Source: Mobula hypostoma
Lineage: Eukaryota
Assembly (NCBI RefSeq): GCF_963921235.1
Contig: NC_086108.1
Coordinates: forward strand, 37,078,001 to 37,142,000
Direction of reading: 5' to 3'
DNA length: 64,000 nt
Every line of letters begins with the position of its first letter. The stretch's first letter is position 1. Positions 4,872-61,349 of the stretch are shown here, piece by piece. The notes under the pieces are model-generated. The model did not search any database and was not told where the DNA came from. It was given only the letters and a program-made list of their open reading frames with translations. The position numbers were made by a program, and so were the translations under genes.

Positions 4872-6205
4872 TAGAAACATAGAAAATCTACTGCACAATA
4901 CAGGCCCTTCGGCCCACAAAGATGTGCCAAACATGTCCTTACCTTAGAACTACCTAGGCTTACCCATAGCCTTCTATTTTTCTAAGCTCCATGTACCTAT
5001 CCAGGAGTCTCTTAAAACGCCCCATCATTTCCGCCTCCACCACCACCGCTGGCAGTCCATTCCACGCAGTCACCACCCTCTGCGTAAAAAACTTACCCCT
5101 GACATCTCCTCTGTACTTACCTTCAAGCACCTTAAAACTACGCCCTCTCATGCTAGCCATTTCAGCCCTGGGGAAAAGCCTCTGACTATCCACGTGATCA
5201 ATGCCTCTCATTATCTTGTACACCTCTATCTCATCCTCCGTCACTCCAAGGAGAAAAAGCTGAGTTCACTCAACCTATTCTCATAAGGCATGCTCCCCAA
5301 TCCAGGCAATATCCTTGTAAATCTCTTCTGTACCCTTTCTATGGTTTCCACGTCCTTCCTGTAGTGAGGTGACCAGAATTGAGCACAATACTCCAAGTAG
5401 GGTCTAACCAGGGTCCTGTGTAGCAGCAACATTACCTCTTGGCTCTTAAACTCAATCCCAGGGTTGATGAAAGCCAATGCACTGTATGCCTTCTTAACCA
5501 CAAAGTCAACCTGTGTAGCAGCTTTGCGTGTCCTATGGACTCGGACCCCAAGATCCCTTCCATCCTCCATACTGCCAAGAGTCTTACCATTAATGCTACA
5601 TTCTGCCATCATATTTGACCTACCAAAATGAAAGTCTTCACACTTATCTGGGTTGAACTCCATCTGCCACTTCTCAGCCCAGTTTTGCATCCTATCAATG
5701 TCCCACTGTAACCTCTGACAGCCCTCTACACTATCCACAACATCCCCAACCTTTGTGTCATGAGCAAATTTACTAACCCATCTCTCCACTTCCCCATCCA
5801 GGTCATTTATAAAATCACGAAGAGTAGGAGTCCCAGAACAGATCCCTGAGGCACACCACTGGTCACCAAACTCCATGCAGAATATGAACCATCTACTACA
5901 ACTCTTTTCCTTTTTTGGGCAAGCCAGTTCTGGATCCACAAAGCAATGTCCCCTTGCATCCCATGCCTCCTTACTTCCTCAATAAGCCTAGTATGGGGTA
6001 CCTTATCAAATGCCTTGTTGAAATCCATGTACATTACATCTACTGCTCTACCTTCATCAATGTGTTTAGTCACATCCTCAAAAAATTCAATCAGGCTTTT
6101 AAGGCACAACCTGCCTTTGACAAAGCCATGCTGACTATTCCTAATCGAATTATGCCTCTCCAAATGTTCGTAAATCCTGCCTCTCAGGATCTTCTCCATG
6201 AACTC
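4872..6205 (-). mobile_element. CR1 LINE, 5'-truncated (frameshifted RT and C-terminus)
   Basis: ORFs 5807..6208, 5241..5939 and 4960..5244 carry QHGFVKGR, YMDFNKAFDKVPH, GVPQGSVLG and LEYCAQFWSPHY; (TTTCTATG)n-type tail at 4872. Confidence 0.92.
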
Positions 6206-17991: not shown

Positions 17992-19310
17992 CTTCTATCT
18001 CTGGAGACAGCTTATCTACTGATGTCACTATAAGCCTACGGACTCTCATAGTTACCTGGACTATTCCTCTTCTCACCCTGTCTCTTGCAAAAATGCCAAC
18101 CCCTTCTCGCAATTCCTCCATCTCTGCCGCATCTGCACTCAGGATGAGGCTTTTTATTCCAGGACGAGGGAGATGTCCTCTTTTTTTAAAGAAAGGGGCT
18201 TCCCTTCCTCCACCATCAACTCTGCTCTCAAACGCATCTCTCCCATGTCACGCACATCTGCTCTCACCCCATCCTCCCACCACCCCACTAGGAATAGGAC
18301 TCCCCTTGTCCTCACCTACCACCCCACCAGCCTCTGGGTCCAACAATTTTTTGTAACTTCTGCCACCTCCAAGGGGATCCCACCACTAAGCACATCTTTC
18401 CCTCTCCCCCTCTGCTTTCCGCAGGGATTGCTCCCCACATGACTCCCTTGTCCATTCGTCCCCCCTATCCATTCCCACCGATCTCCCTCCTGGCACTTAT
18501 CCTTGTAAGCGGAACAAGTGCTACACATGCCCTTACACTTTCTCCCTCACCACCATTCAGGGCCACAGACAGTCCTTCCAGGTGAGGCATCACTTCACCT
18601 GTGAGTCGACTGGGGTGATATACTGCGTCCGGTGCTCCCGATGTGGCCTTCTATATATTGGTGAGACCTGACACAGGCTGGGAGACCATTTTGTTGAACA
18701 CCTACACTCTGTCCGCCAGAGAAAGCAGGATCTCCCAGTGGCCACACATTTTAATTCTACATCCCATTCCCATTCTGATATGTCTATCCACGGCCTCCTC
18801 TACTGTCAAGTTGAAGCCACATGTAGGTTGGAGGAACAACACCTTATATTCTGTCTGGGTAGCCTCCAACCTGATGGCATGAACATTGACTTCTCTATCT
18901 TCCGTTAATGCCCCACCTTCCTTTCCTAACCCATCCTAACCCATCCCTTATTTGTTCATTTATTATTATTTTTTTTTCCGCTCTCTCTCCTTTTTCTCCC
19001 TTTGTCCCTTTCACTATACTCCTTGCCCATCCTCTGGGCTTCCCCCCTCCCCCTTTCTTTCTCCCTAGGCCTCCCATCCCATGATCCTCTCATATTCCTT
19101 TTGCCAATCAACTTTCCAGATCCCTCCCCCTCCTGTCTTCTCCTATCATTTCGGATCTCCCCCTCCCCCTCCCACTTTCAATTCTCTTACTATCTCTTCT
19201 TTCAGTTGGTCCTGACAAAGGATCTCGACCCGAAACGTCGACTGTACCTCTTCCTATAGAGGTTGCCTGGCCTGCTGCGTTCACCGACAATTTTTATGTG
19301 TGTTGCTTTA
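17992..19310 (+). mobile_element. Penelope-like element, 3' portion (RT end, GIY-YIG endonuclease, tail)
   Basis: YKPTDSHSYLDYSSSHP near 18030; GVIYCVRCSRCGLLYIGET at 18612-18668; LGSLQPDGMNIDF; CT-rich tract and terminal repeat. Confidence 0.9.
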
Positions 19311-21698: not shown

Positions 21699-22268
21699 AA
21701 CACACATAAAAGTTGCTGGTGAATGCAGCAGGCCAAGCAGCATCTCTAGGAAGAGGTACAGTCGACGTTTCAGGCCGAGACCCTTCATCAGGACTAACTG
21801 AAAGAAGAGCTAGTAAGATATTTGAAAGTGGGATGGGGAGGGGGAGATCCAAAATGATAGGAGAAGACAGGAGGGGGAGGGATGGAACCAAGAGCTGGAC
21901 AGTTGATTGGCAAAAGGGATATGAGCAGATCATGGGACGGGAGACCTAGGGAGAAAGAAAAGGGGGAGGCGGGGGAAAAAGCCCAGAGGATGGGCAAGGG
22001 GTATAGTGAGAGGGATAGAGTGAGAAAAAGGAGAGAGAGAAAAAGAATGTGTGCATATAAATAAATAAATACTGGATGGGGTACGAGGGGGACGTGGGGC
22101 ATTAGCGGAAGTTTGAGAAGTCAGTCTTCATGCCATCAGGTTGAAGGCTACCCAGACGGAATATAAGGTGTTGTTCCTCCAACCCGAGTGTGGCTTCATC
22201 TTTACAGTAGAGGAGGTCATGGACAGACATATCTGAATGCGAATGGGACGTGGAATTAAAATATAAGG
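21699..22268 (-). mobile_element. Penelope-like element 3' fragment nested antisense in the older Penelope
   Basis: Reverse-complement homologue of 18750-19300; near-TSD taaaaggggt (21689-21698) / taagaggggt (22269-22278). Confidence 0.85.
21759..21796 (-). ncRNA. Minimal type I hammerhead ribozyme motif
   Basis: Minus strand UAGUC-CUGAUGA-A-GGGU(CUCG)GCCU-GAAA-CG-UC-GACUG. Confidence 0.7.
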
Positions 22269-27340: not shown

Positions 27341-27436
27341 ATTGTGTTAATGTAGAAGTTCAGTAATAACATTTTCAAATTATCTAAGTAGTATGGCCTA
27401 TGCCAAGTAGAAATAAGCAGGCATATTATTGGGTAA

Positions 27437-27586
27437 ACAACAGGAATCCTGCAGATGCTGGAAATTCAAGCAACACACATCAAAGTTGCTGGTGAACGCA
27501 GCAGGCCAGGCAGCATCTATAGGAAGAGGCGCAGTCGACGTTTCAGGCCGAGACCCTTCGTCAGGACTAACTGAAGGAAGAGGGAA
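27437..27586 (-). mobile_element. Short Penelope-tail element
   Basis: Near-identical to 21700-21805; candidate TSD TGGGTAA at 27430-27436 and 27587-27593. Confidence 0.85.
27532..27569 (-). ncRNA. Minimal type I hammerhead ribozyme motif
   Basis: Minus strand UAGUC-CUGACGA-A-GGGU(CUCG)GCCU-GAAA-CG-UC-GACUG. Confidence 0.7.
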
Positions 27587-28361
27587 TGGGTAATGTAATT
27601 TGGGCAATGAAGGATTAGTTCAAGGTTGGTGTCCACTTTGATATGAGTCAACGCAGCTGTCAGGAACTTATTCTGAGAAAGCGACTGGTAATAATAAAAG
27701 ACACATGGCTTGCATTGCCATTGAGCTGAATAAAATATTCAAGTACTTACAGTTTAATATACAGATACTAGAGTCAACGAAATAAAAGTCTTCAGCATGT
27801 AGTTGGGGCCTAATCCAGTGACTGAGGATGACTCAGTAGAGATTAATTTGATAATGAGAGAAGATAGATATTTCAGATCATCAGTTTCTGAAAACATCTG
27901 AATTTGCTTTACCGGGATACATAAAAAAGAGAAATATTGTATGAGATAAGTCATGGGCAGATAGCATAGTGTTGACTGCTTTATACCACCTTTGGGAGTT
28001 AAAACCAGACCAAAGGATAATATTTAGTAGATATAAATGATACACAGCATTGTCCAAGATGGAGTTCTTTGCTGCATGTAACAACTAGAATGTATTTTTG
28101 CTACAAAGCAAAAAAAAGACAATAAAAATTACTGCAGCTTTAAGCCTGTAGGTGATAGTTTTGCAGTTCTGTGTGTATTAATAAGGAAGCTTTAAAAACT
28201 CATATTGAACTGAATCCACTGTGCTGCTGCAACTTATCACCCTAGGCTTGACGAGTAGGGACAAACAAAAGAGTCAATCAATAAATTGTAACATGGCTTA
28301 GGTGGCAAACAGGTTTGGGGTTTTCCTGCCCTTCTAAGCTTAAACCCCTCCCATCCTGTCT

Positions 28362-30047: not shown

Positions 30048-33000
30048 AGACTCTGTAGAGCCCATGAAGGTCGGCTGCTCTGGATTCTCTGCCAATGAGA
30101 GGTCCCGGCATCAGAGTCAAGGTAGATGCTTTTGCTACAGGAAAACAGGTCTCTTATGGGCCAAATGTCCCTGGATACAACCGTCAGGAAAACTGCTAAC
30201 AGTGTTCGGAGGACTGTGATGGTAGCAGCCATTGCTCCCAATCCCACGGATTCTAGTTTCTTGCTGAAAGTGGTGTTCACCTAAGCTAAGAACTTGAGGC
30301 AAATGAAGGCTTTTGTGGATTCTGGGACAGTGGGTAACTTTCTGGATTTAGGAACTACTCATCAGCTTGACATACCGCTGCGAAAGTGGAGCTAGTCCAT
30401 GACTACAATTGTCTTGGACAACTGCCTGCTAGACTGCCGGCAGATCCAGCAGCAGACTGTGGAATAACAGATGAGAATTGAGGATCGGGGGAAGACATTA
30501 GTTCCTACATTATTGATTCTCCACTCGTACCCCTAATCCTTGGGCACCCTTGGCTGTCCAAGCATAACCCATCCATGAACTGGAGGGAGAGGAGAATCAT
30601 TGCTTTGTCCAGTCATTGTTAGAGGGTTTGTTTGCAAGCGTGGTGTTCTAACACCAGGACTTTCCCGAGACCAACGACCAACAAGAGGGCAGCCTTCAGT
30701 GCGAGGCAACCTGAGGCCTTGTAGAGACCTAGTCCGGTCCTCAAGAGCGGACAAGCCGGTTCCAACCAGTAGGACAGTGCGTGTCCTGACACAGTCTAGT
30801 CAGGATCCCACAGGAACTAGAGAGGGAAAATCTCTCGTTCAGGAGGAGACCAAGGAGATACCTGAGTATTCTGGAAGACTTGCAGCTAAGCCCAAGGAAT
30901 CCAACTGCTTGGTTTTGAGGAGAGGACGGACTGCTATACGCTGATCCTTGAAGCCTTATCTTAGGGGAGCGGGTGTGGGAGTAAGGACCATCTGTAACGG
31001 CTGAGGATACAGATGGGGATTTGGACTCTAACTTGGCCACAGTTTCTATAAATGAACTTTGTGAGCCTAGGGAGGGGACTCTGAGGTCTGCCAAATCACC
31101 CCTGCCACCTAAGAAGCCTCAGGAGTCATCCTCAAAAGAAGGTCTGGAGGAGATAGTAACACCAAGACCGTTCAAAATTCCTTCAGTTTACGAGGACTTG
31201 TAGGAAGTCTTCAGCAAGGGAAAGGCCTCGACTCTTCCACTGTATTGAGCCTATGACTGTGTTATAGACCTGCTGCCCAGTACTTGTCCACCCATCCCCA
31301 AGGTGATTGAATGCACTCTCTGGCCCAGAGAGAAGCACAATGGAAGAGTATATAAAGGAAGTTTCTTGCCATGGGCTTCATTTGGCCCTCCACCTCACCA
31401 GACAATGCAGACTTCATCTCATACAAAGGAAAGCTGGGAGCCTGTGGTCATGCATTGATTATAGGGGATCAAACTGCATAATGATCATGAATCTTTATCC
31501 CTTTCAACTCATGAATATGGCCTTTAAGATGCTCCAATGAGAGAGAGTATTCACAAAGTTAGACCTGCAGAGTGCATACAATCTAGTTTGTATAAAGGAC
31601 GGTGATGAGTGGAAAACCGCATTCAATACACCGACGGGGCATTACGAGTACCTGGTTATGCTCTTTGGTCTTGTGAATCCTCCAGCAATCTTTCAGGCCT
31701 TTGTCAATGATGTGCTCTGTGATACACTCCATAAGTACATCTTCATCTACTTGGATGATGTCTTAATCTTCTCGAAGTTCATGAAGGAGCACATAGCGCA
31801 CGCCAGAGATATCTTAAAGAAGCTTCTAGACCATGGACTTGGAGAAATTTGAATTTAATGCAGCGACCATTTCATTTCTGGGTTTCTTCATCTCCAATGG
31901 CAGTCTCAAGATAGACCCTACCAAGACCCGGGCTGTCAGAGACTGGCCACACCATTCAGTGTCAATCAAGTCCAATGACTCCTGGCGTTTGCATACATCT
32001 ACCAGAAGTTCATCAGGAACATTAGCTTGGTGGCAGCTCCGCTGATGGTGTTAAGAAATCCATGGGCCCTTTTGTCTGGACTATTGAAGCAGAGGCTGCT
32101 TTTGCAGAATTTAAACAGCGGTTCACATCAGCTTCCACCTTTGGTTTCTCCTATCCTGGACCTTCCCTTCATTGTGAAGGTGGATGCCTCAGACATTGGA
32201 GTGGGTGCAGTGTTGTCTCAACGATCACCTTCAGACAGTAAACTGTACCCGTGTGCATTCTTCTCCAGGTGGCTATCCCCAGCAGAGAGGAACTATGACA
32301 TCAGGACTCGAGAGCTTCTTGTGGCTAAGTTAGCTTTTGAGAAATGGCGTCAGTGGCTAGAGGGGGCCAAGAACCCTTTTATCATGTGGACAGACTGATC
32401 TATATTCAGGAGGCCAAGAGGCTGAATTCTAGGCAGGCCAGTTGGTCGTTGGTCTTTGTTCTTTAACCACTTTAATATCATCCTGACCGATCGACCGGGG
32501 TCAAAGAACCAGAAGCCAGATGCCTTGTCCTGAAAGTTTGACAAACTGGAATGAGAGGAGCAGCCTACCACCATTTTGCCCCAAGCCAAGATGGTAGCAC
32601 CAATTTATTGGGGAAATCGACGATCTTGTTCGCAAGGCCCAAGCACAAGGGGAGATTCCTAAGAACGGAACTCCGGGTTGGCTGTTTGTTCCAAGTTCCA
32701 TCTGGTCCAAGGATGGACCGGACACCCAGCAATTGCCAGGACCCTCGAGTTTATCAAGAGAAGGTATTGGTGGCCCAAATGATGAAAGAGGTTCGGCAGT
32801 ACATGCAGGCATGTGAGGTGTGTGCCTAGAACAAGGAGCCCCGTACCTGACCTCAACGCCTCCTCCACCCCCTACCTATTCCAGAAAGATCATGGACTTC
32901 GTCACAGGTCTTTCACCATCTAAGGGGAAGGCTATCATTGTGCTAATTGTTGATCACTTTTCGAAGGTCTGCTACCATCTGTCTCGGAGGCGGTCAAAAT

Positions 33001-45054: not shown

Positions 45055-48000
45055 TGTGTTCTCAGAGAAATAGAAGACCTAGATGAGATAAAAATTGGAG
45101 GTGTTAACATCAACAATATAAGATATGCAGACGATACCACCCTAATAGCAAGTGCTGCAGAAGACCTACAAATCCTCCTAGACAAAGTAGTACAAACAAT
45201 TGTAGATTTTGGTCTGACCATCAACTGTAAAAAAACCAAATGTATGGTAATATCAAAACAGCAGGATACTCCCAATTGCCAATTGTACATCAGTAACCAA
45301 GAGATTGAATAAAAGATCAGCTTTAATTACCTCAGTAGCTTTATATAACAAGATGCTAGAAGTAAAGTAGAAATAAAAAGAAGAATTGCCATTACCAAAA
45401 CCAACTTCCAAAAAATGAAACCCATTTTTACCAACAGACACATTTCTATGACAACAAGGCTTAGGCTACTGAAAAGTTACATCTGGTCAATCTTGCTGTA
45501 TGCTTCCGAAACAGGGACTATAACACCAGAACTCCAAAGAAACTTAGAAGCAACAGAAATGTGCTTTCTTTGAAGAGTGCTGAAGAAATCATATAGAGAA
45601 AGGGTAAATAATGAGACAGTACTCCAATGTGCCCATACAAAAAGATCTTTAATGAATCCTAGGGGGACCAATATCCTGGCGGGGAGATTAGCGAGGGCTA
45701 CTGAGGTGACTTTAAACTAGAATGGTTGGGGGGTGGGAATCAAATTAAAGAGACTAGGAGAGAGGAGGTTAGTTCACAACAAGGGGATGGGAACAAGTGC
45801 AGAGAGACAGAGGGGTGTAAAATGAGGGTAGAAGCAAAAAATAGTAAGGTGAAAAGTAAAAGTGGCAGGCCGGCAAATCCAGGGCAAAAATCAAAAAGGG
45901 CCACTTTTCAACATAATTGTATAAGGGCTAAGAGTGTTGTAAAAGCCAGCCTGAAGGCTTTGTGTGTCAATGCAAGGAGCATTCGTAACAAGGTGGATGA
46001 ATTAAAAGTGCAGATTGTTATTAATGAATATGATATAGTTGGGATCACAGAGACATGGCTCCAGGGTGACCAGCGATGGGAGCTCAACATTCATGGATAT
46101 TCAATATTCAGGAGGGATAGACATGAAAGAAAAGGAGGTGGGATAGCATTGCTGGTTAGAGAGGAAATTAACGCAATAGAAAGGAAGGACATTAGCCGGG
46201 AGGATGTGGAATCGATATGGGTAGAGCTGCATAACACTAAGGGGCAGAAAACGCTGGTGGGAGTTGTGTACAGGCCACCTAACAGTAGTAGTGAGGTTGG
46301 GGATGGTTAGAAATTAGAAACAGGAAATTAGAAATGTGTGCAATAAAGGAACGGCAGTTATAATGGGTGACTTCAATCTACATATTGATTGGGTGAATCA
46401 AATTGGTAAGGGTGCTGAGGAAGAGGATTTCTTGGAATGTATGCGGGATGGTTTTTTTGGACCAACATGTCGAGGAACCATCTAGAGAGCAGGCTATTCT
46501 AGACTGGGTATTGAGCAATGAGGAAGGGTTAATTAGCAATCTTGTCGTGAGAGGCCCCTTGGGTAAGAGTGACCATAATAAAGTGGAATTCTTTATTAAG
46601 ATGGAGAGTGACATAGTTAATTCAGAAACAAAGGTTCTGAACTTAAAGAAGGGTAACTTTGAAGGTATGAGACATGAATTAGCTAAGATAGACTGGCAAA
46701 TGACACTTAAAGGGTTGACGGTGGATATGCAATGGCAAGCATTTAAAGATCGCATGGATGAACTACAACAATTGTTCATCCCAGTTTGGCAAAAGAATAA
46801 ATCAAGGAAGGTAGCACCCATGGCTGATAAGGGAAATTAGGGATAGTATCAATTCCAAAGAAGAAGCATACAAATTAGCCAGAAAAAGTGGCTCAACTGA
46901 GGACTGGGAGAAATTCAGAGTCCAGCAGAGGAGGACAAAGGGCTTAATTAGGAAGGGGAAAAAAGATTATGAGAGAAATCTGGCAAGGAACATAAAAACT
47001 GACTGTAAAAGCTTTTATAGATATGTGAAAAGAAAAAGATTGGTTACGACAAATGTAGGTCCGCTACAGACAGAAATAGGTGAATTGATTCTGGGGAGCA
47101 AGGACATGGCAGACCAATTGAATAACTACTTTGGTTCTGTCTTCACTAAGGAGGACATAAATAATCTTCCAGAAATAGTAGGGGACAGAGGGTCCAGTGA
47201 GATGGAGGAACTGAGGGAAATACATGTTAGTAAGGAAGTGGTGTTAGGTAAATTGAAGAGATTAAAGGCAGATAAATCCCCAGAGCCAGATGGTCTGCAT
47301 CCCAGAGTGCTTAAGGAAGTAGCCCAAGAAATAGTGGATGCATTAGTGATAATTTTTCAAAACTCTTTAGATTCTGGATTTGTTCCTGAGGATTGGAGGG
47401 TGGCTAGTGTAACCCCACTTTTTACAAAAGGAGGGAGAATGAAACCAGGGAATTATAAACCGGTTAGCCTGACATCGGTGGTGGGGAAAATTATAGAGTC
47501 AGTTATCAAAGATGTGATAACAGCACATTTGGAAAGCGGTGAAATCATCGGACAAAGTCGGCATGGATTTGTGAAAGGAAAATCATGTCTGACGAATCTC
47601 ATAGAATTTTTTGAGTATGTAACTAGTAGAGTGGATAGGGGAGAACCAGTGGATGTGGTATATTTGGATTTTCAAAAGGCTCTTGACAAGGTCCCAAACA
47701 GGAGATTAGTGTGCAAACTTAAAGCACATGGTATTGGGGGTAAGATATTGATATGGATAGAGAATTGGTTGGCAGACAGGAAGCAAAGAGTGGGAATAAA
47801 CGGGACCTTTTCAGGATGGCAGGCAATGACTAGTGGGGTACCGCAAGGCTCAGTGCTGGGACCCCAGTTGTTTACAATATATATTAATGACTTAGATGAG
47901 GGAACTAAATGCAGCATCTCCAAGTTTGTGGATGACATGAAGCTGGGCGGCAGTGTTAGCTGTGAGGAGGATGCTAAAAGGATGCAGGGTGACTTGGATA

Positions 48001-49110
48001 GGTTAGGTGAGTGGGCAAATTCATGGCAGATGCAATTTAATGTGGATAAATGTAAGGTTATCCACTTTGGTGGCAAAAACAGGAAAACAGATTATTATCT
48101 GAATGGTGGCCGATTAGGAAAAGGGGAGGTGCAACGAAACCTGGCTGTCATTGTACACTAGTCATTTAAAGTGGGCATTCAGTTACAGCAGGCGGTGAAA
48201 AAGGCGATTGGTATGCTGGCATTCATAACAAGAGGATTCGAGTACAGGAGCAGGGAGGTACTACTGCAGTTGTACAAGGCCTTGGTGAGACCACACCTGG
48301 AGTATTGTGTGCAGTTTTGGTCCCCTAATCTGAGGAAAGACATCCTTGCCATAGAGGGAGTACAAAGAATGTTCACCAGATTGATTCCTGGGATGGCAGG
48401 ACTTTCATATGATGAAAGACTGGATCAACTAGGCTTATACTCGTTGGAATTTAGAAGATTGAGGGGGGATCTTATTGAAACGTATAAAATCCTAAAGGGA
48501 TTGGACAGGCTAGATGCAGGAAGATTGTTCCCGATGTCGGGGAAGTCCAGAACTAGGGGTCACAGTTTGAGGATGAAGGGGAAGCCTTTTATGACCGAGA
48601 TTAGGAAAAACTTCTTCACACAGATAGTGGTGAATCTGTGGAATTCTCTGCCACAGGAAACAGTTGAGGCCAGTTCATTGGCTATATTTAAGAGGGAGTT
48701 AGATAAGGCCCTTGTGGCTAAAGGGATGATGGGGTATGGAGGGAAGGCTGTTACAGGGTTCTGAGTTGGATGATCAGCCATGATCGTACTGAATGGCGGT
48801 GCAGGCTCGAAGGACCGAAGGGCCTACTCCTGCACCTACTTTCTATGTTTCTATGTTTCTAGAACATTAAATTAGAGGAAACTTAAATTCCTGGACCATG
48901 TCGTCAGGGATAAATAGAGTGCCTTACATTACAATGCTGTATGCCTGGGAAACACGGAAGAGGAAGGCAAAGAAGAAAATATATGGACAATGTGAAAGAA
49001 CTAACAGATCTAAGTGTGCAAGATATCATTGATGCTGTGAGGGATCGTTCGATGCGGAGAGCCATGATTGCCCGAGCGTGTAACGTGCAAGGCACTTAAT
49101 GAAGAAGAAG
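45055..49110 (+). mobile_element. RTE-clade LINE 3' part, split by a CR1 (45055-45652 and 48862-49110)
   Basis: INNIRYADDTTLIA, GLTINCKKTKCM and LLYASET motifs; after the CR1, KLKFL.HV.R and GRGRQRRKYMDNV; (GAA)n tail at 49101. Confidence 0.88.
45653..48861 (+). mobile_element. CR1 LINE: ORF1 end plus complete but disrupted ORF2
   Basis: NPRGTNILAGRLARA* (esterase-type ORF1 end); EN LCVNARSIRNK..GITETWL; RT ORF 47025..48161; stops/frameshifts at ~46310, ~46450, ~46815 and 48161; (TTTCTATG)n tail. Confidence 0.95.
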
Positions 49111-50290: not shown

Positions 50291-51366
50291 AGAAATCCAT
50301 GAAACAAATGATCAGAAATATTTGATCACAAACCACTCTTCTGAAGGAAACGTTCAGTCCTTTTATTGACAGGCACACCTAATTACATTGTGCATTCTAT
50401 TTTCTATAAAGTATAAGAAATCAGCTTTTAGTAATTTGCTTACGAAAGGTTCAAAAATCTAGGTAATGATAGAGATCTAGATCTAGATTCTAAGGCTAGC
50501 AGGAAGAAGCTTAAGAGTGAAATTAGGAGAGCCAGAAGAGGTCATCAGAAGGCCTGGGCGGGCAGCACTAAAGAAAACCCCAAGGCATTCTACAAGTATG
50601 TGAAGAGAAAGAGGATAAGGTGTGAGAGAATAGGACCAATCAAGTGTGACAGTGGAAAAGTGTGTATGGAACCGGAGGAGATAGCAGAAGTACTTAATGA
50701 ATACTTTGCTTCAGTATTCACTACGGAAATGGATCTTGATGATTTTAGGGATGACTTACAACGGACTGAAAAGCTGGAGCATATAGATACAGTATTAAGA
50801 AAGAGGATGTGCTGGAGCATTTGGAAAGCATCAAGTTGGATAAGTCACCGGGATGGGACGAGATGTAGCCTAGGCTACTGTGGGAGGTGAGGGAGGAGAT
50901 TGCTAAGCCTCTGGCGATGATCTTTGCATCATCAATGGGGACGGGAGAGGTTCCGGAGGATTGGAGGGTTGTGGATGTTGTTCCCTTATTTAAGAAAGGG
51001 AGTAGAGATAGCCCAGGAAATTATAGACCAGTGAGTCTTACTTCAGTGGTTGGTAAGCTGATGGAAAAGATCCTGAGAGACGGGATTTATGAACATTTGG
51101 AGAGGCATAATATGATTAGAAATCGACAGCATGGCTTTGTCAAAGGCAGGTCGTGCCTTACGAGCATGATTGAGTTTTTTGAGGATGTGACTAAATACAT
51201 TGATGAAGGTAGAGCAGTAGATGTAGTGTATATGGATTTCAGCAAGTCATTTGACCAGGTACCCTATGGAAGGCTTATTAAGAAAGTAAGGAAGCATGGA
51301 ATCCAAGGGGACATTAATTTGTGGATCCAGAATTGGCTTGCCCACAGAAGGCAAAGAGTGGTTGTA

Positions 51367-51776
51367 AACAAAAAATACTCTGCAGATGCTGGGGTCAAAG
51401 CAACACTCAGAACACGCTGGAGGAACTCAGCAGGTCGGGCAGCATCCGTGGAAACGATCAGTCAACGTTTCGGGCTGGAACCCTTCGTCAGGACTGAAGA
51501 GGGAAGGGGCAGAGGCCCTATAAAGAAGGTGGGAGGAGGGTGTGAAGGAGAAGGCTGGTAGGTGCCAGGTGAAAAACCAGTAAGGGGAAAGATAAAGGGG
51601 TGGGGGAGGGGAAGCAGGGAGATGATGGGCAGGAAAGGTGAAGAAGGAATGGGGGAGAGCACAATGGGCACTAGTAGGAGGCGGAACCATGAGGGAAGTA
51701 GTAGGCAGCTGGGGGAGGGGCAGAGTGAAACTGGGATAGGGGAAGGGAGGGGGAGGGTATTACCGGAAGTTGGAGA
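51367..51776 (-). mobile_element. Penelope-derived tail element
   Basis: Perfect 14-bp TSD AAAGAGTGGTTGTA at 51353-51366 and 51777-51790. Confidence 0.9.
51458..51497 (-). ncRNA. Minimal type I hammerhead ribozyme motif (best-preserved copy)
   Basis: UCAGUC-CUGACGA-A-GGGU(UCCA)GCCC-GAAA-CG-UU-GACUGA: 6-bp helix I and a G10.1-C11.1 pair. Confidence 0.78.
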
Positions 51777-52369
51777 AAAGAGTGGTTGTAGATGTGTCAT
51801 ATTCTTCATGGAGGTCACTGACCAGTGGTGTGCCTCAGGGATCTGTTCTGGAACTCCTTCTCTTCATGATTTTTATAAATGACCTGGATGAGGAAGTGGA
51901 GGGATGGGTTAGTAAATTTGCTGATGACACAAAGCTTGGGTGTGTTGTGGATAGTGTGGAGGGCTATCAGAGGTTACAGCAGGACATTGATATGATGCAA
52001 AACTGGGCTGAGCAGCAGCAGATGGAGTTCAACCCAGATAAGTGTGAGGTGGTTCATTTTGGTAGGTCAAATATGATGGCAAAATATAGTATTAATGGTA
52101 AGACTCTTGGTAGTGTGGAGGATCAGAGGGATCTTGGGGTCGAATCCATAAGACACTCAAAGCTGCTGTGCAGGTTGACTTTGTGGTTAGGAAGGCATAT
52201 GGTGCATTGGCTTTCATCAGCTGTGAGATTGAGTTTAAAAGCCGAGAAGTAATGTTGCAGCTATATAGGACCCTGGAAAGACCCCACTTCAAGTATTGTG
52301 CTCAGTTCTAGTCACCTCACTACAGGAAGGATGTGGAAACCATACAAAGGGTGCAGGGGAGATTTACGA

Positions 52370-53188: not shown

Positions 53189-55972
53189 ACAAGAATGTTG
53201 CCTGGATTGGGAAGCATGCCTTACGAGAATAGATTAAGTGAACTTGGCCTTTTCTCCTTGGAGCGATGGAGGATGAGAGGTGACCTGATAGAGGTTTATA
53301 AGATGATGAGAGACATTGATCATATGGATAGGCAGAGGCTTTTTCTCAGGGCTGAAGTGGCTTAGATGAGAGGCCACATTTTTAGGGTGCTTTGAAGTAG
53401 GTACAGAGGAGATGTCAGGGGTAAATTTTTTTACACAGAGAGTGGTGAGTGCATGGAATGGGCTGCCGGCGACAGTGGTGGAGGCGGATACGATAAGGTC
53501 TTTTTTTTCCATACTTTATTTTCAAAATTTTCAAAAAAAAATAACGAAATCAACAAGAACATACCAGCTCAGACATGCGTAAAAATGAAATAAGTGAAAA
53601 AAAAGGGACATAACATTAGAGGGACGCCTATTTTACAAAGTGTTCAAAAATACTAAACATTAAATCTCAAATGAGGGCCGTGAGAAATCAGCTGGGCGGA
53701 AATTGCTCACCTGCCCCCGGCCTTGTCCAGGTAGGCAAGGAATGGATCCCAGATAGCCGAAAACGTTTTAATTGAATTGGTTCTCAGAACCTAAGTTTCT
53801 CCATCTGTATGACTGAGGTTATGTCAGCCATCCATCTCCGAAAGGAAGGGGGAGAGGGTGATTTCCATTCCCTCAAGATAAGTCTTTTGGCGACAATCAT
53901 CCCCAGCATCAGAGACTGTTGTATGGCTGCAGGGAAACAAATAGTAGATTGCGAGCAGCCAAATATGGTGAGACCAGCTTCCAAGAGGAAAGATCTTTTA
54001 TTGGCCTTTGAGTACCAGTCGAATATTTTGGACCAAAATCCAGTCAGTAATGGGCAAAACCAAAAGGTGTGTGACAACGTGGCCTCCGTCCCTTGGCATC
54101 TATCACACATTGGCAAGACAGAAGGATAAATCCTGCGCAATCTAAATTTAGAGTAGTGGAGGTGGTGGTCAACTTTAAACTGGATCAGTTGGTGCCTGTT
54201 GTTAACAGAGCAAGCCTGTATCATAGACAAACACTTGTCCCAGGCAGCTTCAGATAATTCAATGCCCAACTCCTCTCTCCAGATATCTCTAATCTTCACA
54301 GTAGTCGCTACAGTGCAATCATCAAACAAACGTACAAACTTAGAAACGAGATGCCTGGAGTCAGGAGGGTTCTTTAAAATATCAAAAAATATATGTCTCC
54401 CTGGAAGTATTTCAAAATTACAAATCTTAGATTGAATGTAGTGTCTAATTTGTAAATAACGAAAAAAGTGCGAATGTTGCAAACTGTCTCTCTATGTACA
54501 GCGCTTCAATAGAAACTAGACCCTTCTCCCTCCGAGCATGGTAGGTTTTATCTGACCGTGAGGGTAGAAAGGAGTGATTGAAACAGATTGGTGTTTGTAC
54601 AGAGGTCTCTGGTAAATTCAGAATGCTCCTAATCTGATTTAGAATTCTGACGGAATTTTTCAAACCAAAACTCAAACTTTTTGAAGTCCCAGCCTTCTCT
54701 AACTTAGAGTATCCCGATAGTCTGCCAAAAGAGGTGATTAAATCTAGAAGAAGAGGGACTGACTTTTCTAAGTTTTGTAGGTAAAGTATGACATCGTCAG
54801 CATATAAACTAATAAGTGTTTCAATACCTCCCACTTTCAAACCCACAATATTTGGTTGACTTCTTATTTTTAGGGCAATGGGCTCTACTGCGACGGCAAA
54901 AAGGGCCGGCGAGAGAGGGCACCCCTGCTGGACTGAACGGTGTAGGGGAAAAGAGTTGAATTGTCACCATTAGTTATAATAAAACACATTGGGCTGGCGT
55001 ATATCAGTTTTACCCAGGATATAAATGACTCGCCGAACCCAAACCTGTACAGTGACTCAAACATGTAAGGCCAATCAATCTGGTCAAAAGCCTTCTGTGC
55101 ATCAAGGGATAAAATTGCTGCCCCATTAGCTTTCCCATGATCAGCATATATAGTATTAAGGAGGCATCTGACATTGGAAAAAGAGAACCTACGCGGGACA
55201 AATCCTGTCTGATCAGGATGAATGATAGATGACAAATGCTTATTTAGACAGTTAGCCAGCATTTTAGTAATTACTTTTTTATTGAAATTCTGGAGTGCAA
55301 TGGGCCTATAGCTGGCCGGGTCTGTTTCCTCTTTACCTTTCTTTAAAATGAGGGAAATGTTAGCCTCGTACAATGTTTTAGGCAAGGCTTTATCTCTGTT
55401 AGAGCAAAATATCATTCTGAGGAGAAGTGGGGCAAAATATCACAAAATTTCTTCTAAAATTCACAGCCAAATTCATCTGGCCCAGCAGCCTAGTCGGACA
55501 GAAATGACTTAATGGCAGACGTTATTTCTTCCAATGTGAGGTCAGAATTTAGGTCCTCCCTAGCCTGCGTTACTAAGTTTCGGCATTACAGAAGAATCAA
55601 AGAAGTCATTCAAATCAGATTTGAGTGGCATTGCATTAGGAGGTGTAGAGTTCACTGTAAAATTCTTTAAGACCGTCATTTATCTCTCTGGGGTTAGTTA
55701 ACAGGGTACCCGTCCTCGATCTAATGCAGTGAATTGACCTTAGGGTCTGGGCGCCCCTGCACTACTGAGCCAGGAGCCCCTCAGGCTTGTCCCCCATTTC
55801 AAAATGCCTTTGTCTTAATTTTAAGAGGGGGTTATTTATTTGACTACCCAAGATACAATTGTACTCATATTTAAGCTTCATTTTTTTAAATAATCTTCAG
55901 AGGACTTTGAAACCTGGTATGTCGCTTTGAGAGTTGGGAGAGTATTCCCAATCTCTAATAATCGCCCTTCTC

Positions 55973-56754
55973 ACCAAAACCAAGGAGATGATCGTCGATT
56001 TCAGACGGTCTCAGCCTAAGCACACACCCCTCAGCATCAGCGGCTCCACAGTGGAGAGAGTGGAAAACACCAAGTTCCTTGGGGTGCAGATCTCGGACAA
56101 TCTCACCTGGTCCAGGAACACCACTGGGATTGTGAAACGGGCCCAGCAGAGATTGCACTTTCTGAGGAAGCTTAAACAAGCATCACTCCCCACTAACGTC
56201 TTAACTACATTCTACAGAGGCGTGGTTGAGAGTGTGCTGACCTTTTGCATCACAACCTGGTACTCCAGCTGCAGTGCTGTCGACAAAAAAGCCTTGCAGA
56301 GGGTGGTTAGGGGAGCAGGGAAGGTTATTGGGGTCTCCCTACTTTCTGTCCAAGACCTCTTTCAGAGTCGATGCCTCCAGAAGACACGGTACATCATTAA
56401 AGACCCCTCGCACCCTCTCCATGAACTGTTTGTTCTTCTGCCATCAGGCAAATGTTACAGCAGCATCAAAACTAAAACCACAAGGCTACTAAACAGCTTC
56501 CTCCCACAGGCAGTCAGACTGCTAAATAGCTTCTCCACCTGACTCTGCTTTGGACACTTTTAACTTGCACTGGACACTTATAGCTGATTTTAACTGACAT
56601 GTGGCTGTTGTGTTTTACTATTTATTGTTATGTTTGTTATTTAGTGTTGCGTTTGTTATGTTATGATTGCACTGCTCCTGGGAAATGCTGTCTCATTCTG
56701 CCCTGCAGAGCTGATGTATGGTTAGAATGACAATAAAGTTTTTGAATCTTGAAT
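55973..56754 (+). mobile_element. Rex1/Babar-type LINE 3' fragment nested in L1 ORF2
   Basis: Open frame KTKEMIVDFRR..FLGVQISDNLTW..QAVRLLN; AATAAA and (TTGAATC)n tail; candidate TSD cttctc. Confidence 0.88.
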
Positions 56755-58353
56755 CTTCTCTCTCCCCCTTAGCAGTGGACTTATATGAAATTATATACCC
56801 ACAAATTACAACTTTTAATGTCTCCCAGAGTGTGGTATCTGACACCTCGCCATTATTGTTAATTTCTATAAAATCTTTTAACCTGGTGGTGATATTTTCT
56901 ATAAATTTCTTATCGGCAAGTACGGAGAGGTTAAAATGCCAGGAATCAATTTGTTTGGAAAGGAAGAGATTTAGGGACATTGTCAAGGGGCTTTGGTCAG
57001 AAATTAATCTATTATTGTATTTTGTATTGGTAACACGAGATATTAAATGAGAGTCAATCAAAAAAATAGTCTATTCTACTATAATATTTGTGAACATGAA
57101 AATAATAAGAATAGTCCTTGTCGGTGGAATATTGAATTCACCAAATATCTACTAAATTCCTAGATTCAATCAAATTATTTAGGACCTGCACTGACACGAT
57201 ATTTGAGGACGGGTGGGAGGATAATCTATCTAAATATGGATCTAGGTAGCAATTCAAGTCACCGCTGATTATTATATTTGAATTACTGGCATCCGGAAGT
57301 AAATCAAAAACTTTCCTAAAAAAATTTGGCTGGTCTGTGTTTGGACCTTAAATATTAAGGAAGGTTAGAGCAAAAGAATTAATGGTGTCAGAGATCATAA
57401 TAAACCTGCCGAGAGGATCTGTGGTCATGGAAGTGAGTTGAAATGGAATATTTTTCCTAAAGAGGGTAGCCACACCACGGGCATGAGAAGTAAATGGTGA
57501 CTGGTAAACCTGCGATATCCAGCTCGACCTCAATCTGCGTAGCTCAGTTACTTTGATATGGGTTTCCTGTAGAAAAATCACATCTGCAGATAGAGATTTG
57601 AGATGTCTAAAAACTTTATCCCTCTTAGCAACATGACCAAGGCCCTTAACATTCCACGAGACTATTGTAATAGCTTTACCCCGCCGCCCCAGCTGCATAC
57701 TACCGCAAGGCCTCTGCATATGCGAACAAAAAAAGAGATTATTAGAGTTGAGCACAAACATAGTAAACAATGCAAAATAGCTGGCAGCCTCATAAAAACA
57801 CAACATACACAAAAAAAAAAGTCTGAGCCATAGACAAGAACAACACCCACCCTAACCCACCCCCCTTTGTCTCTCCCTAAACCAGACACATAGTTCCCCA
57901 TTTCCATCCCAAAAGGAGTTGCTGGGCAGGTAACTAACATTACAGAATTATCACAAACCCCCTCTCCAAGAAAATTTATAACACCAACTAAATAATACTG
58001 TTAAACAAATGCCATTAGGGCTGAGGAGAGTTATCCAATGTCCGCATCTGAAGCTGGACATTCATGACACCAACTCAAATTTAACCCTTATAATAACAGA
58101 AATACTTAGAACATTCTCTGCAATGAAATCCCAGCGTGGCATACAGCATTGTAAAACTACATATAACAAGCAGATCCCTCCCCTTATCCCAACATGGAAA
58201 CCGGCACAAATATAAGCTGAATGAGCAGTGTCAATATATCTACTCCCTTTTGCGTGCGTTATTCCTTTCAAAGAATTGTGCTGCTTCTATTGGGTCGTCG
58301 TATACTTTCGGTGCTCTTCCATCCTGAAGATAAATATAGAGCCTAGCCGGATA

Positions 58354-59942
58354 CAGGTTTCCCCCGCCATCCGAAGGTAGAGTGTTCCTACGAAACAGTT
58401 CGTAAGCCGAAATGTCGTAAAGTGAAGCAGCAATTACCATTTATTTATATGGGAAAATTTTGTGAGCGTTCGCAGACCCAAAAATAACCTGCCAAATCAT
58501 GCCAAATAACACAGAAAACCTAAAATAACAGTAATATATAGTAAAAGCAGGAATGATATGATAAATACACAGCCTATATAAATAGAAATACTTTTCTGCA
58601 ACGATTACCTGCACAGATCTCCGTAGCGAAAATCTCACGCAAGTGCTCTCGGCAGAAAATCTCACGCAAGCGCTGTTGGCATAAATGCGCTCTCCAGTAA
58701 CCTTTAAACTATGAAGCTGCCAAATCTACCAAATAACACGTAAAAATACACAGCTGATATAAAGTAGAAATAATGTATGTACAGTGTAGTATCACTTACC
58801 GGAATTGGGAAAGTGTGGAGCACACTGATGGTGGTGTGTTAGGGTGAGTCGTCACAGGTTGGGTGGTGCAGCGGCCCCACCCTCCGGGCCACCGACCCGA
58901 TACATTGCCGCGAAGCACGCAGGGGTAGCCAGGAGGCACACAGCACATCTTTAAGAAAAAAGCCGAAATAAACATGCTAATTAATTAGGTGCTGCCCAGC
59001 ACGTAAATGTCGGTGCAGATCAGAGGCGACTGCCGATTGCGTCGTCTCTGATCTGGGCCGACAATTAGGTGTCAGGCAGCACCTAATTAATTAGCATGTT
59101 TATTTCCGCTTTTTTCTTAAAGATGTGCTGTGTGCGTCCCGGCTACCGTTGCATTTTCCGCGAATCGGTATCTGTCCGTGGCCTGGGGGTTGGGGTGGTG
59201 GGACACCGGGGTGTCATCTTGTCATCTGTTTCCATTAGAGCAGGTGGCTCATCTTCTTCTATCTCTGCCCGGCTCGATGTTGAAGGTTGAGGTTCGTCGT
59301 CTGCTGTGGCTGATGTGGAAGGCTTGCTTGACTGCTGAGCCTCACGCATTTTTCTATCACACAGTTCTTTAATAAGGACTCAAACCATCCTGCAGATATC
59401 TCCTAAACCGATGTACCCTTTCAAAATTAAAGTCATACTTTATCATTACTCATTCGGTTTCGATTGTTATCCTTTTTTCTTCCAATTGCATCAGCTCTTC
59501 ATCTGTCAGTTCTTGGTGATGGGATGCCAAAACCTCTTCAACATCATGTTCATCAGCTTCCACAAGCCAAACTCACGTTGTCCTTACTTCGTTCACCATG
59601 ATCAAAAGGCTTAATTATGTCTAGTTTTAACATAAGTGTAACACCCTTACGAGCTCTTTCAGGCTTTTCCAATACAGTACCATAGAACTCATCTTGCAAG
59701 CGGCTGCTCACATGCACGTGTTTAAGTAATGCCGTTCCGAATCCAGGGAGAGCGGCTGCTCGGGGCGCGCTCTGCCTTTTATCGCGCGCTGATTTTTTCG
59801 CGTGCTGATATTTTGATCGCGCGCTGAATTATTTTTCGCAACAGTGAAAACACCTTCTGAAAGCGAAAACAGGGTACTAATGTAGGTCTTTCGTAACAGT
59901 GAGGTTTCGTAAAGCGAACGTTCGCAAAGTGGGGGACACCAG
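58354..59942 (-). mobile_element. Tigger/pogo-like non-autonomous DNA transposon nested in L1 ORF1
   Basis: TA TSDs; imperfect TIRs CAGGTTTCCCCCG / CTGGTGTCCCCCA; transposase C-terminal remnant EDVEEVLASH.QELTDEELMQL; L1 ORF1 rejoins as KHTLLY|PARL. Confidence 0.88.
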
Positions 59943-61349
59943 TACAATAGGGTGTGCTTGATTCCTCCATCACGCAGAGTTTGCAGTACATCACAAAAGG
60001 CACAACATTGAGACATCACCTCATTAGTATAATCCGGGAAGATCAAGACCTTGTTTCCCTTGTATCCATGGGTTGTAGCCTGCTGTGGCGCAGGATCAGC
60101 TCTTTCACTTGAAAGTGATGGATACGTGCCAAGATGGCTCACGGCTTAGCACCGGCAGCCGGCTCCGGCTGGAGAGAGCGATGTGCATGATCAACTTTAA
60201 CCAGGTACGAGAAATGTTTTCCCCAAGCAACTTGGGAATCAGTTTATAAACAAATTCAGCAGGTTTACCATCCTCCTCACCCTCTTGTATCCCTACAATC
60301 TTAATGTTATATCTCCGGGAATGAGCCTCTAAGTCATGCACTTTAGCTTCAAGCTGGCTATTTTGTCTCCTTAGCTCTGAATACTTAGATTCAAGCTCTT
60401 GCACGCGTGCTTCAAGGTTGCTAGTGGTTAGTTCTTGATTAGCCACACAGGCTTTTAAGTCAGCCTGTGAGGCCACAGGTGTCTGAAACTTGGTCGCAAA
60501 GACATCAAGGCGGTCGTTAATGCTGCGCAGAACTGACTCAGAAACCTCCTGACCTAATTCCTTGCACATGGCGTAAGTTGTATCTGGCGGTATCTCAGAT
60601 GCGGAAAAGTTCTTTACAGACCCATTGTTAACACTAACTCCAGTAGTTTGGCAGTCGGTGGTCTTGGCTTTATTTGTCTTCGGCATTGTCAAACTTTTTC
60701 AGACACTTAGTTTAGACATACACTGTTGGCCTATGAATGAATAAAACACGGTATAATAGTAATTTTATTGAGGCCTTGGAGAGGAGCACTGACCAAACAC
60801 GTCTAATCCATACACATGCGCACTGGCGTCCCCTCACGATAGGGTCTTTTAAGAGACTCCTGGATAGGTATGTTTCTATATTTCTAATTAATAAGTTAAA
60901 CTACTGAAAGCAAAAATTGACTTGTTTATAAAGAATATGCTGGTTTGGGGACACTCTCAGTCCAGTTTTCACTTTAACCAGGATAGAAAGTGCTGGAGAT
61001 AATTTCTGGATATCATATCAGACACAAATTTTGTGAGGCACTTCCATACAGTGTTACCACACAGCCCATAATCATTATTTCCATCATACCAGCATAAGTT
61101 AGAACCAAAACCTCTATATTATGAAAATGTCTATTACATTAGCTCTTATGATTGGCTACTCAAAGTGGGCCAGGAATTTCAGAGCAAGAAATAAAGACAC
61201 ACCTATCTGTGAGAGGTCTATTTCCATAGTCTTCAATAAAACCTACTTGGACCTCTTTGATGCACAATATATCTGTAGGCTCATGTTTCTTTAGTTTATC
61301 CTCACTGAGGTATGTGAGATGTTCCAAGAACTCAACAACTATCAACAAT

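Follow-up and report, generated by a model that had tools for sequence, protein, structure and literature searches.

The 410-bp insert described here is very probably what remains of a Neptune-like Penelope element (PLE): a truncated copy that entered its target by target-primed reverse transcription of an uncut RNA. The minimal type I hammerhead that it carries is likely an inert relic of a dimer-type ribozyme. The insert lies in a 64-kb stretch of DNA, the whole of which is called the window below. An earlier interpretation made from the letters of this DNA alone (the sequence-only reading) had described an intact minimal hammerhead in a recently inserted Penelope tail, and had regarded the 410-bp copy as a mobilised, non-coding and potentially self-cleaving unit. 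Coordinates of the insert, its target and the related copies are collected in Table 1.

Table 1. Features of the 410-bp insert, its target site and related element copies in the window.
Feature	Position	Strand	Basis
5'-truncated copy of Neptune-like Penelope element, 410 bp	51367..51776	-	target-site duplication, homology, family depth
Minimal type I hammerhead motif	51458..51497	-	direct reading, published descriptor match, shuffles, fold
ORF-end remnant (part of F codon, S-N-F-R, stop)	51760..51776	-	translation
Pyrimidine-rich 3' untranslated region of the subfamily	51498..51759	-	nhmmer self-match
Sequence downstream of hammerhead, predicted stem-loop	51367..51457	-	fold
Optional terminal tail of ~30-35 nt	about 51367-51400	-	alignment of 8 ends
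Target-site duplication at the element's 3' end, 14 bp	51353..51366	.	exact repeat, empty sites
Target-site duplication at the element's 5' end, 14 bp	51777..51790	.	exact repeat, empty sites
Host LINE reverse transcriptase frame split by the insert	50869..52252	+	Pfam RVT_1, LINE ORF matches
Second hammerhead fitting the descriptor (GUC triplet), within a short sister-subfamily copy	27527..27570 (approximate)	-	
Third hammerhead fitting the descriptor (GUC triplet), within a truncated copy of ~560 bp with ORF end	21754..21797 (approximate)	-	
Linker and endonuclease region, decayed, within a longer copy spanning about 17.9-19.3 kb	18390..18908	+	CX4CXXC linker, IY-CXXC-YIG motif

Insertion of a Penelope copy into a host LINE

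The insert interrupts the reverse transcriptase frame of a LINE, which we take to be CR1-like. Pfam RVT_1 positions 4-107 are found to the left of the insert and positions 112-194 to its right, and another LINE ORF of the window aligns with the two flanks over its residues 163-326 and 325-445. Elsewhere in the window, a paralogous LINE copy that matches both sides contains the target once, with the two matches overlapping by 14 bp at 5894-5907. The public sequencing runs all (24 of 24) consist of contigs, and in 4 of 4 runs compared over the region 51150-52000 there are contigs (2, 7, 9 and 3) that join 51352 to 51777 and share 14 letters at the joint. These joints are most simply explained as paralogous LINE copies that lack the insert. 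Among the pieces listed (32 of about 247,800), no contig spans a junction of the insertion. Because the repeat is exact, the LINE paralogue has a single target and the joints correspond to empty sites, the 14-bp target-site duplication is real and the length of the insert is 410 bp. The perfect duplication noted in the sequence-only reading is thus a true duplication of the target, as demonstrated by uninterrupted sites in the window and in the four runs, and the insert arrived by retrotransposition. The same evidence of duplication and empty sites upholds the earlier view that a Penelope-type minimal type I hammerhead was carried in by this event.

The 3'-terminal 143 nt of the insert are homologous to seven other element ends in the window, and family depth covers the insert from end to end in each of the four runs. 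At the opposite end, 262 nt upstream of the hammerhead, the insert carries the last codons and the stop of the element ORF. The longer window copies and the homologous proteins share these codons, and the insert is therefore a 5'-truncated copy of a coding element rather than the non-coding unit of the sequence-only reading. The last T of the target appears to complete the F codon, which would correspond to 1-2 nt of microhomology. PLE copies of this kind, with only the 3' repeat, are listed as partial in Table S1 of PMC4209133. A search of the window with nhmmer found no second copy of the untranslated region (self-match only), and no full-length parent of the exact subfamily of the insert was seen. 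Downstream of the hammerhead, the insert is predicted to form a stem-loop with GAUGCUG/CAGCAUC as its closing stem, in which the arms of the inner hairpin are kept and the loop differs between subfamilies. This stem-loop is a candidate site for binding or initiation by the reverse transcriptase (RT).

Element group and clade placement

In the longer, decayed copies of the window (17.9-19.3 kb and 22.5-24.3 kb on the plus strand, 22.3-21.7 kb on the minus strand), remnants of RT come first, followed by a Cys-linker and then by a C-terminal GIY-YIG-like endonuclease (EN). The ORF ends with DFSNFR-stop in the 21.8-kb copy and with DFSIFR-stop at 18.9 kb, and in both it is followed by a pyrimidine-rich untranslated region and the same hammerhead end. 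The hammerhead is therefore situated in the terminal repeat of the PLE, downstream of the RT-EN ORF.

A protein search using the linker-endonuclease piece (18390-18905, one stop read as X, E up to 1e-10) retrieved 13 proteins among 98 candidates. The six best of these 13 homologues are 72-86% identical and carry the names of two rays, Mobula hypostoma and Hypanus sabinus, which makes a ray the probable source of the window. FSNFR forms the C-terminal end of three of the 13 and lies 8 residues from the end in a fourth. The linker reads CKRNKCYTC in P0001, and a CX2-5CXXC linker is present in 8 of the 13 homologues, either before IY-CXXC-YIG or at the end. According to PMC8557442, such a linker between RT and EN is a trait of Neptune and Nematis. 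Pfam reports GIY-YIG on the endonuclease region of the element at E 0.11, which is below the cut-off, and gave nothing useful on three decayed PLE pieces. With a Pfam GIY-YIG match as weak as this, we use the label Neptune-like. Several ray proteins that bear the names of host genes (mucin-2, divergent protein kinase domain 1C and isoforms of chitinase domain-containing protein 1) carry the PLE endonuclease piece, and these names suggest gene models that are contaminated by PLE repeats or exonise them.

The hammerhead and the other copies in the window

Direct reading of the minus strand confirms each part of the motif that the sequence-only reading had given, namely the strand, the core, helices I and II, the extra A and the ACGU palindrome. 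The two arms of helix I, 51497-51492 and 51463-51458, form six Watson-Crick pairs. The core CUGACGA occupies 51491-51485 and is followed by the extra A at 51484, which is placed between A9 and 10.1. Helix II is 4 bp in length (51483-51480 with 51475-51472) with a loop of 4 nt (51479-51476), and is composed of G10.1-C11.1 (51483 with 51472), two further G-C pairs and a closing U-G pair. GAAA is located at 51471-51468, the palindrome ACGU at 51468-51465 and U17 of the GUU triplet at 51464, and the predicted cut site falls between 51464 and 51463.

The published descriptor of minimal hammerheads (Fig. S7 of PMC4209133; stems of 3-7 bp, cuganga, loop of 3-10, gaaannuh), run on both strands, matches the window three times, with C3 at 51491, 27564 and 21791. 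All three matches are on the minus strand and have the ACGU palindrome in common. In total, eight 3' ends of the element group are present in the 64 kb, the 410-bp insert and seven more, two of the seven being intact. In the remaining copies, G8 is changed to A (~19.2 kb), U4 is changed to A (~16.0 kb), the hammerhead has suffered deletions (near 24.3 and 6.5 kb) or the motif is missing (near 41.6 kb), so that three ends match the descriptor, two have point changes in the core, two have deletions and one is without the motif.

The cleavage triplet is GUU in the 410-bp copy and GUC in all four other copies of the window that have the site. None of the difference rows listed (40 of 120) falls at 51464. 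The simplest origin of GUU would be deamination at a former CpG, either in the 410-bp copy itself or in its master.

Two further observations concern the arrangement of the copies. The copies at 22.3-21.7 kb (minus) and 22.5-24.3 kb (plus) lie head to head and are only about 73% alike over 150 bp; the pair recalls the inverted truncated partner of PLEs, yet the two are probably separate insertions. A very short copy at 27435-27600 (minus) has a 7-bp repeat on either side, ~50 nt upstream and 100 nt downstream of the cut site. This repeat may be a target-site duplication, which would place the 5' end of that copy just upstream of the hammerhead, or it may have arisen by chance.

Proposed mechanism of insertion

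The 410-bp insert extends 97 nt beyond the hammerhead cut site, and the RNA from which it was copied was therefore uncut at the hammerhead. All five window copies that have the cut site extend past it, by about 65, 69, 97, 100 and 100 nt, which means that the templates of those insertions were uncut as well. The terminal tail of ~35 nt is present in 4 of the 8 ends and the other 4 stop before it, matching the optional tail of 30-40 bp known in PLEs (PMC8557442).

In the reading that we prefer, a truncated Neptune-like PLE insertion from uncut RNA, a target of 14 bp was duplicated and the insert reaches from the last ORF codons to a point 97 nt beyond the cut site. Judging from the biochemistry of Anolis Poseidon (PMC11167929), the GIY-YIG endonuclease of the element would nick the target, and RT would initiate internally, about 100 nt beyond the cut site, on RNA that is still uncut. 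RT would then copy through the hammerhead and the 3' untranslated region and stop after 410 nt, and the insert would be joined at the 1-2 nt of microhomology. In the Anolis element PAc, as reported in PMC11167929, RT starts 111-118 nt into the ORF with the cut site at +26, and uncut RNA is the main template. By subtraction, the Anolis start lies 85-92 nt downstream of the cut site. With 3' ends at 65-70 and 97-100 nt beyond the cut site, the window copies suggest that the geometry of internal initiation known from one Poseidon element extends to a Neptune-like one. With its 14-bp duplication, tail, uncut template and truncation at the ORF end, the insert is a textbook Penelope insertion.

For the parent element, the literature leads us to expect that the hammerhead would work only when two copies pair their ACGU into helix III, as in tandem transcripts, and that its cutting, probably with the help of protein, would process a precursor RNA. 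The single truncated copy would have no partner in cis, and its core would be buried in the predicted rod.

It is also possible, though we consider it unlikely, that the hammerhead of the parent element is a passenger or a protein-binding fold whose cutting is not needed for mobility, and this would be compatible with an inert relic in the 410-bp copy. All window copies that retain a cut site derive from uncut templates, and in Anolis catalytic mutants did not alter insertion in vitro (PMC11167929). Naiad and most Chlamys elements amplify without canonical hammerheads, and the authors of that study raise the idea of hammerheads parasitizing PLEs (PMC8557442). However, the letters of the core are kept across animal phyla (Fig. 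S3 of PMC4209133), a U3-A8 covariant has been published from Schistosoma, and the C3G/G8C rescue demonstrates real catalysis in Anolis (PMC11167929).

Cleavage capacity of the 410-bp copy

The sequence-only reading considered the insert to be a potentially self-cleaving unit. We cannot support this description for a single copy without tandem array that has a predicted inactive monomer fold and extends 97 nt past the cut site. A monomer with ACGU and no loop cannot form helix III. In ViennaRNA, the monomer is predicted to prefer a rod of -14.8 kcal/mol over a form with an open core of -12.4 kcal/mol, a difference of 2.4 kcal/mol. The rod pairs G5-A6-C7-G8 with C-G-U-U, with pair probabilities of 0.58-0.70 in the full insert, and the two other intact window copies fold into the same predicted core-burying rod. 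Dimers were modelled in ViennaRNA as the palindrome duplex and as an unconstrained cofold, a kissing dimer being beyond its scoring. The self-duplex of the palindrome amounts to about -3.5 kcal/mol, and the unconstrained cofold also buries the core. No tandem array is present at the insert locus, where the hammerhead is single-copy, and its nearest intact partner is 24 kb away.

A dimer built from the 410-bp copy might still be able to cut. Lunse et al. are said to have reported dimer cleavage in 2017. In published experiments, a single minimal hammerhead of Schistosoma showed no cleavage, and dimers or trimers showed low cleavage. The Anolis hammerhead cut only in the presence of protein (PMC11167929). 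The belief expressed in the sequence-only reading, that minimal hammerheads of PLEs cut as dimers by way of a palindromic helix III, is in line with PMC4209133. In Xenopus, one of nine dimer elements cut in vitro (bioRxiv 10.64898/2026.07.22.740005).

The 410-bp copy might instead be a working ribozyme, which would pair in trans or with the 27.5- and 21.8-kb copies in a read-through host or LINE transcript and cut the RNA; we regard such activity as very unlikely. The core, helices and palindrome are intact, and the three intact motifs of the window, on the same strand and with a shared ACGU, could in principle form heterodimers. GUU is listed as a permitted, active NUH site (PMC3138052) and is common among the natural minimal hammerheads of Fig. 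S3 of PMC4209133, and the family sequence is present in one run (X16) guessed to be RNA. However, the intact partner is distant and the palindrome duplex weak as given above, both the monomer rod and the unconstrained cofold are predicted to bury the core, published activity is low even for tandem dimers, and no Anolis RNA-seq reads end at the hammerhead cut site (PMC11167929).

Comparison with retrozymes and dispersed partners

Non-LTR retrozymes (bioRxiv 10.64898/2026.07.22.740005) resemble the insert in having a type I hammerhead within a few hundred non-coding bases of a PLE repeat. They are tandem units, each with a hammerhead, whereas the 410-bp insert is a single copy with a target-site duplication and an ORF remnant. 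Hammerhead retrozymes have been reported in one chondrichthyan (same preprint). The insert fails as a member of the retrozymes, with no tandem units, an ORF remnant at its 5' end and a 3' end 97 nt past the cut site.

One may still ask whether 410 bp is the monomer of a non-autonomous mobile unit, a non-LTR retrozyme or a SINE-like family. The same preprint describes monomers of such families and gives a mean retrozyme consensus of 363 bp, close to the length of the insert, for one chondrichthyan species, and the 5' end of the insert lies right at the end of the ORF. Against this, the locus has no tandem array and neither end of the insert is at the cut site, as a unit released by the ribozyme would need. 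Moreover, the 5' end is inside an ORF codon, the truncation points of other copies in the window lie at many different places, and a contig of run X11 (1257 letters), whose positions 4-221 fall on 51554-51777, runs beyond the 5' end of the insert. We therefore find a non-autonomous unit highly improbable.

It is conceivable, but a very long shot, that ray genomes are strewn with intact ACGU-sharing hammerheads (three in this 64 kb, all on one strand) whose non-adjacent and non-identical copies, brought together in long host transcripts or by abundant repeat RNAs, cut host RNA genome-wide as heterodimers, the 410-bp copy being one partner. Should dispersed copies cut host RNA in this way, the finding would matter more.

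Support for the motif

The RNAMotif-type search that the sequence-only reading had suggested bears out the motif: the published descriptor matched at 51497-51458 and gave 0 matches in 500 block-wise dinucleotide shuffles of the window. A looser hammerhead pattern gave 0.047 matches per shuffled 64 kb (300 shuffles). The covariance-model search, suggested along with it, did not: Rfam matched no family anywhere in the window at the gathering score, and at E up to 10 over 51300-51850 it reported no hammerhead family and only two chance lncRNA matches. The silence of Rfam probably reflects a limit of its models, though it is still a negative result. The fold of the 40-mer 51458-51497 has a z of -2.95, with 2 of 200 shuffles equally stable, and this value weakens to -1.70 and then to -0.58 as flank is added.

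Across the eight window copies, 93.8% of 48 cells of helices I and II are paired, against at most 44.9% when the helices are slid. None of the nine helix pairs is changed on both sides and shuffles reach the same pairing scores, so these eight close copies give no evidence of covariation. The motif at 51458-51497 has, in addition to the descriptor match, an extra nucleotide after A9, G10.1-C11.1 and a palindromic 15.1-16.1. That the likeness to a hammerhead is accidental has next to no probability and was rejected on the shuffles and the genomic context: Rfam has no hammerhead match and no helix pair shows a compensatory double change, but three descriptor matches stand against none in 500 shuffles, every trait of PLE minimal hammerheads outside the descriptor is present, and a hammerhead is expected in just this place, the 3' repeat of a PLE.

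Age and decay of the insert

Because it is nested in the LINE, the insert is younger than its host LINE. The 40 difference rows listed, out of 120, divide into 22 inside the insert and 18 among the 441 bases of flank. Against run X1, at least 15 of the 410 insert positions differ from the family majority (more than half of the depth) and at least 12 differ in more than 90% of the depth, which gives a divergence of at least 2.9-3.7%; the LINE flanks have at least 18 majority differences in 441 (4.1%). These figures are lower bounds, as they come from 40 of 120 rows, and they may at the same time be overcounted if the insert derives from a minority subfamily, or if the species of the window is not organism A (in which 0.60 of the words occur), so that the age is a rough bound. 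All but one of the 15 counted insert differences fall in the 51498-51759 untranslated region. At the divergence of the insert, a 14-bp duplication is expected to be still perfect 35-44% of the time. The insertion was called recent in the sequence-only reading. This is not supported, the number of differences being close to that of the host LINE flanks and a perfect duplication having little weight at such odds.

Within the hammerhead, the differences among the 40 of 120 rows are at two loop II positions, 51478 and 51479, where 37-38% of the depth has another letter in X1 and 94-99% in X11. Among the same rows, no X1 majority difference falls in the 40 hammerhead positions, for which the chance P is 0.21; the intact hammerhead is therefore no evidence of selection. 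Selection would give an intact hammerhead, but chance gives it too.

Relation to known systems

Minimal hammerheads of this kind are known, and 51458-51497 adds a ray-like host to them. Cervera and De la Pena described the class in 2014 (PMC4209133), together with its place in PLE repeats, those of Neptune among them, and the dimer model. With the metazoan PLE hammerheads of that study, the motif shares the CUGANGA-H core, the extra nucleotide after A9, G10.1-C11.1, GAAA-CG-UH, the palindromic 15.1-16.1, the type I closure and a location in the 3' repeat of a truncated PLE. In its Fig. S3, the row for the Acropora Neptune agrees in the core, the extra A and a helix II of 4 bp, and cartilaginous fish are absent from the rows of Table S1 and Fig. 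S3 that were examined. The helices of the motif at 51458-51497, 6 bp (I) and 4 bp (II), are closer to canonical sizes than those found in Schistosoma (4-5 and 7-8 bp).

Similarities to Poseidon PAc of Anolis carolinensis (PMC11167929; Frangieh et al. 2024) are a hammerhead situated 65-100 nt before the 3' end of insertions, two alternative 3' ends, an optional tail and an uncut template. In contrast to PAc, the element group of the window has the Cys linker of Neptune/Nematis, and the target of the 410-bp copy is a purine-rich LINE site. The PAc ORF starts inside the hammerhead, while the 410-bp copy has no ATG there.

Other scans and neighbouring repeats

Viral contigs scanned for the motif downstream of the hammerhead gave 0 matches. 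Metagenome contigs gave 21 matches to this motif, which were set aside as chance, none being blastn-similar to the window and none having a hammerhead. The window also contains a second LINE family at 45705-48764 (plus) and about 61.7-63.4 kb (minus), the two copies being near-identical-looking, with endonuclease, RT and few stops. A fragmented LINE of a different type occupies 53784-60698 (minus), with an ORF1-like part (60105-60698), endonuclease and RT pieces, and is interrupted by another LINE remnant at 55931-56542 (plus). At 31979-32398 (plus) there is an RNase H-like remnant, presumably of the sort typical of a Gypsy-type LTR element.
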